Of a stretch of DNA of 39,762 bases, positions 35,942 through 39,692 are shown piece by piece. The position numbers and the translations under genes were made by a program. Each line of letters opens with the position of its first letter. Position 1 is the first letter of the stretch. Source of the stretch: Bacteroidaceae bacterium (GTDB taxonomy: Bacteria > Bacillota_I > Bacilli_A > RF39 > UBA660); the NCBI GenBank assembly GCA_963622385.1, contig CAVFIB010000003.1, positions 1-39,762 of the forward strand, read 5' to 3'. The notes beneath the pieces are model-generated. The model did no database searches. It saw only the letters and a list, made by a program, of their open reading frames with translations, and was not told the DNA's origin.

Positions 35942-37133
35942 TTTTTACCTCCATTATTTGTGATGTTACTATGCCATCAACAAGTTCAGTTGTTATAATA
36001 TTTCCTTTTTTTACATCGTTTATGCTTTTTATAGTTTTATTATTAAATCTTGTTATAGTGTATCCTCTTTTTATTGTTCTAATTGGGTTTAATGCTTCCA
36101 TTTTATCGAGTAGTGATACATATCTAGTTGATTTCATTTCTAAGATTCTATTAATGGCAAGTTCTAAATTATCTATTAATATGTCAAGTTTCTGTGTTTT
36201 TATTTCATATAGTGCTAGGGGATTTTTTAAGGCATAAGAATTCAGTAATGTACTAAGTCTATTTTTACTGAATTCAAGTTTATTATTCATGCTTTTCATT
36301 AGTCTTTGTACTTTGTTATTAATTTCATTTACAAGTTCTATTTTGTTAGGTACTGCAAGTTCTGCTGCGGCAGTTGGAGTTGGGGCTCTTAAGTCGGAAA
36401 CAAAGTCACTTATTGTGAAATCTATTTCATGGCCTACTGCACTTATGATAGGAATATCACAATTAAAAATAGCATTTGCAACAATTTCTTCATTGAAAGC
36501 CCAGAGATCTTCAATGGAACCTCCACCACGTCCCAAAATTATTACATCTAGGTTTAAATCTTTTGCTTTATTTAAACTGTTTACTATGTCTTCTCCTGCT
36601 TTTTCTCCTTGAACAAGTGTTGGGATGAGAATGACTTCTGCTAGGTGATATCTTCTATTTATAGTAGTTATTATATCTCTAATAGCTGCTCCAGTTGAAG
36701 CAGTAATAACCCCAATTCTTTTTGGAAACTTTGGAATCGCTTTTTTTCTTGATTCATCAAAATAACCAAGATCTCCTAGTTTTTTCTTTAACTTTTCAAA
36801 TTCAACGTAAAGATTGCCTATTCCATCTTCTTCCATTTCTTCTACATATATTTGATAATTACCATTTGCTTCATAACAACTTATTCTACCTGTTACTAAA
36901 ACACTAGTACCATCTTTTGGGACAAAGTTAATTTTTGAAGATGCAGATTTAAACATAACCGCAGGAATTCTAGATGTATCATCTTTTAAAGTAAAATAAA
37001 AATGTCCTGAGGTATGATTCTTAAAATTACTTATTTCACCTTTCAAAAATACTTTTTGCAAATTAACATCATTATCAAATTTATATTTTATATAATGATT
37101 GATTCTACTTACTGTTAAATATTTATCATTCAT
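35931..37133 (-). CDS. xseA: Exodeoxyribonuclease VII large subunit
   Basis: The N-terminal OB fold shows FLKGEISNFKNHTSGHFYFTLKD. The catalytic core shows IGVITASTGAAIRD, RGGGSIEDLW and SAVGHE.D. A C-terminal coiled coil is present. Confidence 0.92.
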   Translation of the reverse strand: MNDKYLTVSRINHYIKYKFDNDVNLQKVFLKGEISNFKNHTSGHFYFTLKDDTSRIPAVMFKSASSKINFVPKDGTSVLVTGRISCYEANGNYQIYVEEMEEDGIGNLYVEFEKLKKKLGDLGYFDESRKKAIPKFPKRIGVITASTGAAIRDIITTINRRYHLAEVILIPTLVQGEKAGEDIVNSLNKAKDLNLDVIILGRGGGSIEDLWAFNEEIVANAIFNCDIPIISAVGHEIDFTISDFVSDLRAPTPTAAAELAVPNKIELVNEINNKVQRLMKSMNNKLEFSKNRLSTLLNSYALKNPLALYEIKTQKLDILIDNLELAINRILEMKSTRYVSLLDKMEALNPIRTIKRGYTITRFNNKTIKSINDVKKGNIITTELVDGIVTSQIMEVKNEK

Positions 37134-37530
37134 TATAAGCCTCTTTATGCATTATTGTATCAAGAGTTCCATTTATTAATTTAGTAACTTTTTCATCACT
37201 ATATTTTTTAGATAATTCTATTGCTTCATTTATCGCTACAACGTCTGGTGTTTCTGTATAAAGAAGTTCATAAATAGCAAGGGATAAAATAGCTTTATCA
37301 ACTTTACTTATTCTATCTATATTCCAGTCTTTCATATACTTGTTAGCAATAGAATTTATCTTATCTTGGTTTTCTATAACACCATTTATAGAATTTTCTA
37401 CGAACTCATTTTTTCTATCTAATTGTTCTTTAATTAAATCATTAACAGAAAAATCTATGTTCTTTTCTTTATAAATATATACTTGATATAAAATTTTAAT
37501 AATTATTTCTCTTAATTCACTTCTATTCAT
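37126..37530 (-). CDS. nusB: Transcription antitermination factor NusB
   Basis: Motifs include RSELREIIIKILYQ, W...R....DKAILSLAIYEL and P.VVINEAIELSKKY. I set the start at the ATG at 37530, with GGAGGA 7 nt upstream. The longer ORF adds 19 hydrophobic codons. Confidence 0.88.
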   Translation of the reverse strand: MNRSELREIIIKILYQVYIYKEKNIDFSVNDLIKEQLDRKNEFVENSINGVIENQDKINSIANKYMKDWNIDRISKVDKAILSLAIYELLYTETPDVVAINEAIELSKKYSDEKVTKLINGTLDTIMHKEAYNE

Positions 37531-37549
37531 ATTGATTTCCTCCATAATC

Positions 37550-37578
37550 ATTATATAAAAAATTAGGTTTAAAGTAAA
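37550..37578 (-). promoter_or_regulatory. Putative sigma-A promoter of the nusB-xseAB-glycopolymer unit
   Basis: On the minus strand the -35 is TTTACT (37578-37573), the spacer is 17 nt, and the -10 is TATAAT (37555-37550). It lies directly after the terminator of the upstream gene. Confidence 0.55.
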
Positions 37579-37588
37579 TAATAACAAG

Positions 37589-37623: not shown

Positions 37624-39456
37624 TTAATAAGACAAATAATCTTTTAGTGTTTCAACAGTAGAAGAGCCATTAATTTTAATTCTAGAAATTAAATATTGAT
37701 AATTTGTTCTTTGAGCAGCTTTGTATGGATTAAACCCAAATCCTAATAGGTATTTATTTTCCTTAGTAACTTCTTGTAAGTCTTTAGTATAAACTCCGTA
37801 TGGATATGCAATATATTTGAAATTATATTTTTCGTTTTGTTTAAAGTCTTCTCGTATTTCGTCTTTTGTCATGTTTTTAACGTGTTTTTGTCTATTGATA
37901 TCAACATAATGAAAATTATAACTGTGGCTTTGCAGTTCATGTAAAGGATACTCGATTTTTATTTTTTCCATTAGATCTTCGGAGATGTATCTTATTTCGG
38001 TTTCATCGTATATGCCTTCTTCTTTTTCTTTTGTTCTTGAACCCACTACAAAGGTTACAGCTTTAAAATTGTACTTTTTAAGAAGAGGCATAACTAAGTA
38101 ATAATCATCTAAATTACCATCATCGAATGCAAGAACAACAGTTTTTTTAGGAAAGTTGCAATTACCTTTATACCAACAATAAAACTCATCTAAACTTATT
38201 GTTTTATAATTATTATCATATAAATACTTTATTTGTTGCTCAAATATATCATATGACTGAACCCATTGATCTTTTTTGTATTTAGCATTTTTAAGCTTAT
38301 CTGAAACTATTCTATGAAAAGTAAATATAGGTATTTGAATAGCTTTTTCATGTTCAAGACTTGTGTTGGTACTACAAATATATGCAATTTCTTCATTTAT
38401 GCTTACCTTATAATAACCATCATTACAATTTTTACCATCATATTTTTTTGTTGTTTCTAAAATAATTGGTTCATTTTTTTTATATTTATATGTTGCCTTT
38501 TTTCCTTTTAAATTTTTGTAAATTGTGGTTTTTTTGATTGCTTTAGTGACAGTTGGAGCATTAGAGAGTAATCTACTACAAACATAACCTTCTTTATGTC
38601 CATATTTAATCTTATAGAAACCTTGAGGGCAACCTGCTCCTTTATATTTTTTGTGTGATGCTACTGCTATTTTTTTATTGTACTTTATTCTCATTATTTT
38701 TTTAGAAGATGAACTAGCTTTTGCTCTTACATTAATTCCATCTTTATTATTAGAAACACTTATATATTTTGTTTTTAAAACATCAACTTTTTTTATAAAC
38801 CTTACTTTATTTTTATAATAAACTTTATAATAATTACCATAACTCTTGCTATCATATAAAGTAAGTGGAGTGTTATAGGATAGTTTCCTTAAAACATGTT
38901 TTCCCTTGGTGTTTGAATATACTTTTACTTTATCTAAAGTAGTTATTACACTAGAGCTTTTATTTGAATAGTTAACATACTTACTACAAATATATTTTAT
39001 ATTTCCATCGTAATTAACTTTATATAATCCACTTTTACAATACTTAGTATAATACTTTTTACTACCTACTACAGTAAATAATATATTTTTTATATTTCTT
39101 TTATATATTGTTTTATTAGAAGTACTGTTATATAAAAAAGCTTTCTTGTTGTTTGTTCTAATGGTATGATTAGATATAACTATTTTACTGCTACAGACAT
39201 AACTTGTTTTATTGTTATGGGTTATTAAATACCAACCCGCTTTGCACCCTTCAGTAGATGCAACCTTAGTTAAACTATTTATTACAACCATATCATTGTA
39301 GGATAGACTGTCATATTTTTTATAATTAGTACCTGGACCACTTCTTACATTTAACTTAGTAGTACTAGTTACCCTACCTATTTCAAGTGCATTACAACTT
39401 TGTATCCCCACAAAAGATATAAATATGAAAAATATAATAAACCAAAATTTCTTCAT
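37624..39456 (-). CDS. Secreted protein with five SH3b-like repeats and a C-terminal polysaccharide deacetylase (NodB-type) domain
   Basis: The signal peptide is MKKFWFIIFFIFISFVGIQSCNA. A module of about 70 aa repeats, with the pattern G.YK[VI]......Y[VI]CS. The C-terminal part shows FTFHRIV, VLAFDDGNLDD, KAVTFVVG and LQSHSYNFH. GGAGGAG is an upstream RBS. Confidence 0.8.
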   Translation of the reverse strand: MKKFWFIIFFIFISFVGIQSCNALEIGRVTSTTKLNVRSGPGTNYKKYDSLSYNDMVVINSLTKVASTEGCKAGWYLITHNNKTSYVCSSKIVISNHTIRTNNKKAFLYNSTSNKTIYKRNIKNILFTVVGSKKYYTKYCKSGLYKVNYDGNIKYICSKYVNYSNKSSSVITTLDKVKVYSNTKGKHVLRKLSYNTPLTLYDSKSYGNYYKVYYKNKVRFIKKVDVLKTKYISVSNNKDGINVRAKASSSSKKIMRIKYNKKIAVASHKKYKGAGCPQGFYKIKYGHKEGYVCSRLLSNAPTVTKAIKKTTIYKNLKGKKATYKYKKNEPIILETTKKYDGKNCNDGYYKVSINEEIAYICSTNTSLEHEKAIQIPIFTFHRIVSDKLKNAKYKKDQWVQSYDIFEQQIKYLYDNNYKTISLDEFYCWYKGNCNFPKKTVVLAFDDGNLDDYYLVMPLLKKYNFKAVTFVVGSRTKEKEEGIYDETEIRYISEDLMEKIKIEYPLHELQSHSYNFHYVDINRQKHVKNMTKDEIREDFKQNEKYNFKYIAYPYGVYTKDLQEVTKENKYLLGFGFNPYKAAQRTNYQYLISRIKINGSSTVETLKDYLSY

Positions 39457-39501: not shown

Positions 39502-39657
39502 AAAAAAAGTCAGAAAACTGATAACGAAAACCTGTTTAAGTACAGGTGGTAAACCACATAATATTATTAGGATTCTTAAATAAATTTAAGCATTCAACAC
39601 AAATATTAATTAGATTCCCTTATCGTTGCTTGTACGGTTTAACATATGTTTTCTGAC
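39502..39657 (-). ncRNA. Candidate structured 5' leader (attenuator/riboswitch-like) or small RNA
   Basis: A perfect 10-bp helix GTCAGAAAAC (39657-39648) / GTTTTCTGAC (39518-39509) encloses 129 nt. That interior holds three local hairpins (39575-39590, 39546-39557, 39531-39546). The helix is followed directly by U7 (39508-39502). Its 5' arm starts at the predicted transcription start of the promoter at 39664-39692. I could not match it to any riboswitch class I know. Confidence 0.4.
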
Positions 39658-39663
39658 ATAACA

Positions 39664-39692
39664 ATTATAACCGATAAAATTATTAAAGGCAA
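39664..39692 (-). promoter_or_regulatory. Putative sigma-A promoter upstream of the structured leader
   Basis: On the minus strand the -35 is TTGCCT (39692-39687), the spacer is 17 nt, and the -10 is TATAAT (39669-39664). The predicted start is near 39657. Confidence 0.55.

Follow-up and report, generated by a model that had tools for sequence, protein, structure and literature searches.

A probable short 6S RNA gene of the Bacillus 6S-1 type in a small-genome lineage of gut Bacilli

The structured RNA element encoded at positions 39502-39657 of contig CAVFIB010000003.1 is very likely, as judged from sequence comparison, the 6S RNA gene (ssrS) of this genome, and would represent a short member of the Bacillus 6S-1 type. 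6S RNA is a well-known small RNA that binds RNA polymerase and holds it back. The window analyzed here (39,762 nt) is one whole contig of the 1.06-Mb, 94%-complete assembly GCA_963622385.1. The element is homologous to 6S RNA in both sequence and structure, its helices covary among relatives, it occurs about once per genome and its gene context varies from one genome to another. Two of its features are modestly unusual, namely its short length (~150 nt) and a closing stem that, together with the adjoining U-run, apparently acts as a terminator. The features on which the analysis draws are the following.

39664..39692, minus strand: putative sigma-70-type promoter of the 6S RNA gene, read in the sequence
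39502..39657, minus strand: probable 6S RNA gene (ssrS), 149 nt plus a U7 tail, from Rfam RF00013, the custom model R1 and covariation
39648..39657, minus strand: 5' arm of the closing stem, GUCAGAAAAC, RNA positions 1-10, in perfect pairing with 39518-39509
39509..39518, minus strand: 3' arm of the closing stem, GUUUUCUGAC, exact complement of the 5' arm
39636..39640, minus strand: AAACC, 5' strand of the P2-equivalent helix at the closing-stem end of the central bubble, pairing with GGUUU at 39532-39528
39620..39635, minus strand: GUACAAGCAACGAUAA, 5' side of the central bubble, unpaired in the aligned Rfam model
39623..39627, minus strand: AACGA, distal 5' bubble, candidate by complementarity for a central bubble collapse helix with UCGUU at 39527-39523
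39548..39619, minus strand: apical (terminal) arm, a GGG...CC(A)CC stem with internal loops and an apical hairpin, from the Rfam alignment
39531..39546, minus strand: 3' central-bubble hairpin CCUGUA/(U)ACAGG, a conserved pairing that competes with AAACC/GGUUU
39502..39508, minus strand: U7 run and probable transcript end, read in the sequence
37624..39456, minus strand: gene for an SH3b-repeat and NodB-type polysaccharide deacetylase (Pfam SH3_3, Polysacc_deac_1), downstream neighbour and not part of the RNA

Homology to the 6S family and distribution among relatives

At gathering thresholds, the Rfam scan of the whole 39,762-nt stretch returns no matches. In E-value mode, applied to a 363-nt region, the 6S model RF00013 aligns model positions 38-149 to 39640-39528 with 35.1 bits (E 1e-5), a local match that spans the central bubble and the apical arm, leaves the closing stem unmatched by the model and falls short of the RF00013 gathering cut-off of 46.4 bits. 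Both its local nature and its sub-threshold score can be traced to the inner part of the closing arm, which is reduced in this genus. The snoR03, U7 and snoZ242 matches returned by the same scan (E 4.7-7.6) are chance fits to AT-rich sequence, so that 6S is the only meaningful match in the scan that the first-pass annotation had proposed as a check. That annotation had been unable to fit the element to any riboswitch class it considered, in agreement with the absence of matches to Rfam riboswitch families, and had left 6S RNA out of its list of classes. Its alternative suggestion of a discrete small RNA is borne out by a free-standing gene of the 6S family that carries a promoter of its own and a U-run directly after the closing helix.

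Since the window sequence itself scores below the cut-off, its membership in the family is established through homology to members that pass it and through the structural tests described below. The Rfam 6S model finds a single match in the whole 1.06-Mb genome. Sequences of the same genus score between 29.8 and 47.8 bits, the highest of them (G015, 47.8 bits) lying above 46.4, and those of six other genera of the family (G021, G018, G017, G022, G024 and G020) score from 84.3 down to 50.7 bits in full-length alignments (model positions 1-187), all above the cut-off. These family homologues align unambiguously with the window RNA, with 26 invariant columns that include GGG, CCACCU and CCU. A covariance model built from the 19 homologues that were aligned, here termed R1, scores 156 bits at 39502-39657, and its matches coincide with those of the Rfam 6S model in the genomes scanned with both.

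A sub-threshold Rfam score is also what might be expected if the element were an unrelated, lineage-specific small RNA that resembles 6S RNA by chance in an AT-rich genome, a background from which weak covariance-model matches come easily. We regard such a coincidence as highly improbable, however, because an unbroken chain of alignable homologues connects the window RNA, at the same coordinates as the R1 match, to full-length sequences of 50-84 bits, because no other 6S candidate is found in these genomes and because the helices specific to 6S RNA covary.

The distribution of the RNA is that of a housekeeping gene, with about one copy per genome regardless of its neighbours. R1 locates it in 56 of the 61 genera of the family sampled, 48 of the 50 genomes of good quality among them, and in nearly every case there is a single copy of 156-189 nt; the Rfam 6S model, applied to 40 relatives, finds a match in 24 of them, again nearly always one per genome. 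Within the genus, R1 matches are found in 11 of 17 genomes, and of the six genomes that have none, five are 52-84% complete and one (G001) is 92% complete. Only two genomes (G053 and G067) carry two R1 matches each, on different contigs, and the second match could be either a 6S paralogue or contamination of the metagenome-assembled genome. Two class-level relatives, G038 and G029, each harbor two tandem 6S genes, about 230-310 bp apart, an arrangement that resembles the tandem 6S genes reported in the Bacillus cereus group (PMC7726162).

6S RNAs are usually about 160-200 nt long (PMC8414754), and the window RNA is shorter, measuring 149 nt when counted up to the last base of the closing stem and 156 nt once U7 is included. 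In this it resembles the other RNAs of the genus (151-161 nt including the U-run), those of other genera in the family ranging from 160 to 188 nt. Truncated variants of B. subtilis 6S-1 of 78-82 nt complete the release cycle in vitro (PMC8876501), and a short closing arm need not, therefore, abolish function.

Fold, covariation and competing pairings

The structure evaluated here consists of the Rfam 6S consensus transferred to the window RNA plus the 10-bp closing stem, and it was assessed on a plain MAFFT alignment of 19 homologues that was not fitted to structure. The canonical 6S fold accounts for 83.3% of cells as paired, with 22 of 39 pairs changed on both sides, values that none of 500 shuffles reaches; when the 3' partners are slid by 1-3 columns, paired cells drop to 34-59%. 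RNAalifold independently recovers the closing stem and the apical hairpin, and these two elements also contribute most of the covariation signal (8 of 10 and 5 of 5 pairs, respectively). Covariation thus accompanies a rod-shaped 6S fold, in which the ~150-nt RNA would be arranged as the 10-bp closing stem, the AAACC/GGUUU helix, a large central bubble and a long, interrupted apical arm. Folded as a single sequence, the 156-nt RNA has a minimum free energy of -31.5 kcal/mol (z = -2.63; 1 of 200 shuffles as good), which taken alone is weak evidence, the strong evidence being comparative.

The closing helix is 91.4% paired across the 19 homologues, and its 8 compensatory pairs include exchanges such as GUCAGAGAAU/AUUCUCUGGC and ACCAAAGGU/ACCUUUGGU. 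The AAACC/GGUUU helix, which aligns to Rfam 6S model positions 38-42 and 145-149, is 89.5% paired, with C-G pairs that hardly vary. At the apical hairpin, CUUAAAU/AUUUAAG (39590-39575), 100% of cells are paired. The central bubble is bordered by conserved G-C pairs on both sides: on the apical side, all 19 sequences have G39-C110 and G40-C109 unchanged, and on the closing-stem side a G-C pair occupies C22-G126 in 17 sequences and C21-G127 in 13. Conserved G-C pairs on either side of the bubble are described as a hallmark of 6S RNA in a statement of PMC4064990 that cites Barrick et al., and fold features of the kind seen here are those by which 6S RNAs are identified in published work (PMC4064990, PMC8414754).

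The three local hairpins originally proposed for the enclosed region fared unequally. CUUAAAU/AUUUAAG is retained as the apical hairpin and CCUGU/ACAGG is conserved (87% of cells paired); GUGGU/ACCAC was discarded, being 41% paired in the 19 homologues, no better than the slid controls and devoid of covariation. The internal direct repeat noted in the same region turns out to be a by-product of a self-complementary AAUAUU that forms both strands of the apical stem, for in relatives the two segments are reverse complements of each other (e.g. AAUGUC and GACAUU in G015) and not direct repeats.

The first-pass annotation had also pointed to a competition between AAACC/GGUUU and CCUGU/ACAGG, and both pairings are indeed conserved in the 19 homologues. 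The second of them corresponds to the small 3'-bubble hairpin that has been described for B. subtilis 6S-1 and for the 6S RNAs of lactic acid bacteria (LAB) (PMC8876501, PMC8414754). A terminator-like call at 39547-39530 is this same hairpin, its tail (UUUCGUUAUC) containing no U-run. A further element of B. subtilis 6S-1, the central bubble collapse helix, is defined as a helix that joins the distal part of the 5' bubble to the 3' strand of the helix next to the bubble (PMC8876501). At the sequence level it has a counterpart here in AACGA and UCGUU, the latter on the strand just 3' of GGUUU; complementarity of 5-9 bp is present in 16-17 of the 19 homologues (76% paired on the MAFFT alignment). 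In other genera AACGA is lengthened to AACGAUAA and its partner to UUAUCGUU, and the helix covaries, as seen in AACGAUAA/UUAUCGUU, GUGAUA/UAUCAC and UACAU/AUGUA.

The predicted energies are -22.7 kcal/mol with AAACC/GGUUU formed and -25.6 kcal/mol with the hairpin formed, and those of the alternative states lie within a few kcal/mol of each other. The ViennaRNA minimum-energy fold of the free RNA favours the collapsed pairings over AAACC/GGUUU, and an open-bubble ground state would hence need to be held by the polymerase or by kinetics. By analogy, the competing pairings would correspond to the conformational switch of Firmicute 6S RNAs, in which product-RNA synthesis, rather than a ligand, is the driving force.

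In B. subtilis 6S-1 the product RNA begins with a G opposite C40 (PMC8876501, PMC3753640), and the product RNAs of LAB and Bacillus present GG at positions 5/6, with an adenine beside the start site in the template (PMC8414754). The 5' bubble strand of the window RNA shows the same template hallmarks: a C at 39632 is followed by an invariant A at 39631 (A27), and a CC lying four to five bases 5' of C 39632 would give GG at product-RNA positions 5/6. The gene would be expressed with the transcript ends described below, its RNA would bind polymerase and, by analogy with these RNAs, product-RNA synthesis would start opposite C 39632. On the return of nutrients, the polymerase would take the 5' bubble strand as template, yielding a predicted product RNA 5'-GUACGGUUUAAC... 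(the predicted plus-strand product starting opposite 39632 reads 5'-GUACGGUUU...). The product RNA would then unwind AAACC/GGUUU, the freed 3' strand would become locked in two pairings, the CCUGU/ACAGG hairpin and a collapse helix made of AACGA and UCGUU, and the polymerase would be released.

Promoter, termination and gene neighbourhood

The coordinates of the locus given in the first-pass annotation hold throughout on the minus strand, from the promoter and the start at 39657 to the complement 129 nt further on and the U7 run. The promoter consists of TTGCCT (39692-39687), a 17-nt spacer and TATAAT (39669-39664); it agrees with the consensus at 10 of 12 positions and is the top minus-strand promoter-like site of the region in a promoter scan, even if such matches are equally frequent in shuffled sequence. 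Six bases separate the -10 box from 39657, the first base of GUCAGAAAAC, and transcription from this sigma-70-type promoter would start at about that position. A TATAAT-like box is likewise found 5-7 nt ahead of the first base of the closing helix in 17 of 17 homologues of the same family, and in the 17 family homologues inspected the 3' arm runs straight into a T-run of at least 4-10 T. Every family member inspected thus presents the same layout of -10 box, 5-7 nt, closing helix of 8-12 bp, body of 150-188 nt and adjoining T-run.

Just upstream of the promoter, at the very end of the contig (39718-39759), lies a perfect 18-bp direct repeat, AAGTGACATTTTAAAAAA, in two copies with a 24-bp period. 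In the closest relative, G008, with a 6S RNA that is identical except for one base, the sequence upstream of about -45 is different, which indicates that this repeat does not belong to the conserved portion of the 6S promoter region.

The position of U7 directly after the closing stem suggests that the stem itself serves as an intrinsic-terminator helix and that the primary transcript would need little or no processing. In more distant relatives of the class (G038, G032, G027 and G028) a separate small terminator hairpin is found instead. The closing stem is AU-rich, with 3 G-C pairs out of 10, has an energy of about -12.8 kcal/mol as an isolated hairpin and encloses 129 nt. A limited, non-exhaustive search of the literature on 6S RNAs found no description of a closing-stem terminator.

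Downstream of U7, a 45-nt spacer leads to the start of the deacetylase gene, whose GGAGG and ATG (39456) lie where the first-pass annotation had placed them; the product has 610 aa, and nusB and xseA are the next genes. The mechanically called nusB ORF (37126-37587, minus strand) has a TTG start and encodes 153 aa. Alignments to several relatives begin at its residue 20 (MNRSEL...), which is also where the nusB of G010 starts, and the true start is therefore probably an ATG near 37530.

In the spacer itself, between 39502 and 39456, the promoter scan finds no promoter-like sites on the minus strand, so that some read-through into deacetylase-nusB-xseA is possible. The AU-rich nature of a stem closing around 129 nt, which may make termination incomplete, and the co-transcription of ssrS and ygfA in E. 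coli (Chae et al. 2011, as listed among the references of PMC10578484) also speak for a 6S gene that contributes, through partial read-through, to transcription of the downstream operon. Against this stand a weak -10-like TATATT, with a poor -35, that can be read in the spacer and the clear promoter that follows the U-run in relatives, which argues that such coupling is not a conserved design. We consider a contribution of this kind unlikely, and it would in any case add to the 6S assignment rather than replace it. The broader proposal of a pared-down ~150-nt 6S RNA in a small-genome family of gut Bacilli, with the closing stem as terminator, a primary transcript identical to the mature RNA and a leakage that might tie envelope and nusB-xseA expression to 6S synthesis, is put forward as a tentative and rather doubtful one.

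The genes that follow the RNA differ widely among relatives. The SH3b-deacetylase lies between the RNA and nusB in four genomes of the genus (G000, G008, G011 and G013), nusB follows the RNA directly in five congeners (G010, G005, G003, G002 and G009) and a PIG-L-domain gene is found downstream in G006. In other genera, the downstream position is taken by a gene for a pseudouridine synthase, a ThiF-family protein, a TM2/zinc-ribbon protein or FtsK. Moreover, a promoter with good -35 and -10 boxes and a 17-nt spacer lies between the U-run and the next gene in five congeners (G015, G009, G003, G010 and G013), taking the form TTTACA-17-TATAAT in several congeners. The variability of the downstream gene implies that the RNA is not a deacetylase leader, as it had been framed initially, and the pattern fits a free-standing housekeeping RNA gene. 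Within the genus, the interval between 6S and nusB, empty in five genomes and occupied by a SH3b-NodB deacetylase in four and by the PIG-L-domain gene in one, resembles a site of repeated insertion of genes for cell-envelope enzymes. On the upstream side of the RNA, linkage to rarA was sought in the relatives G011 and G008 and was not found. The upstream region of G011 contains a 264-aa ORF and a 447-aa ORF that, by eye, we take to be histidyl-tRNA synthetase-like, and that of G008 (L028, 1-2900) is wholly unlike it, with small ORFs of unknown function.

These observations also bear on the ligand- or protein-responsive OFF switch proposed by the first-pass annotation, in which the leader of the deacetylase mRNA would bind a metabolite or protein that stabilizes the closing helix and brings about termination at U7. 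Such a cis-acting riboswitch or attenuator would agree with the location of the RNA on the strand of the deacetylase gene, ~45 nt upstream of its RBS, with a U-run after the helix that closes the structured domain, with the mutually exclusive pairings and with the lack of a clear independent promoter in the spacer of this genome. The RNA is, however, homologous to 6S RNA and kept about once per genome whatever gene lies downstream, five congeners carry nusB and not the deacetylase next to it, and in five the next gene has a promoter after the U-run; neither a coherent downstream gene set nor a known aptamer class was found, and the competing pairings are those of the 6S product-RNA cycle (PMC8876501). 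The same misreading has a precedent in the 6S RNA of C. jejuni, first proposed as a purine riboswitch (PMC3847290). Taken together, this evidence overturns the OFF-switch proposal, which we now judge extremely improbable, and favours a 6S RNA gene.

Significance and comparison with known systems

Reading the element as 6S RNA clears up its annotation, turning a structured "orphan leader" into the 6S RNA of an uncultured human-gut lineage (with metagenome-assembled genomes from Hadza gut and rabbit) and removing one riboswitch candidate. It also indicates that bacteria with ~1-Mb genomes keep this global regulator of RNA polymerase. The shortened closing arm explains why the Rfam cut-off misses 6S RNA in this genus, and the family sequences could be used to extend the Rfam 6S seed. 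They offer natural instances of minimal closing arms, in line with the truncated 6S-1 RNAs that are functional in vitro (PMC8876501), and the layout of closing stem and U-run provides a small testable point on termination by a long-range helix.

The closest known system is B. subtilis 6S-1 (BsrA), with which the window RNA shares a rod fold made up of closing stem, central bubble and apical arm, G-C pairs flanking the bubble, a small 3'-bubble hairpin and a central bubble collapse helix (PMC8876501). To these can be added, as a prediction in the present case, a template C from which a product RNA would start with G and carry GG at positions 5/6 (PMC8414754, PMC3753640), as well as a single gene per genome with its own sigma-70-type promoter. 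On the other hand, the window RNA has ~150 nt against the 190 nt of B. subtilis 6S-1, and its closing arm is reduced to the 10-bp helix and a loose internal loop. Its transcript, moreover, apparently has its 5' end where the closing stem begins and its 3' end in the adjoining U-run, whereas B. subtilis 6S-1 carries an 11-nt 5' leader that is removed by RNase J1 (PMC10578484). The gene neighbourhood differs as well, since the 6S loci of Bacillus and LAB lie beside rarA and the present one lies upstream of nusB-xseA.

B. subtilis 6S-2 (BsrB) and E. coli 6S RNA belong to the same family and present the same polymerase-mimicry architecture. B. subtilis 6S-2 has a separate putative terminator hairpin (PMC10578484), unlike the window RNA, in which the closing stem and U7 are the only terminator-like element. 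For E. coli, works listed among the references of PMC10578484 assign ssrS a Rho-dependent termination and a linkage to ygfA, and release of the E. coli 6S RNA depends on a 9-bp extended 3'-bubble hairpin and not on a collapse helix (PMC8876501). With terminating riboswitches, finally, the window RNA has in common a structured domain, mutually exclusive helices and a helix with U-run upstream of a gene; it departs from them in matching none of their families, in having no fixed class of downstream gene and in alternative helices that correspond to the 6S release cycle.
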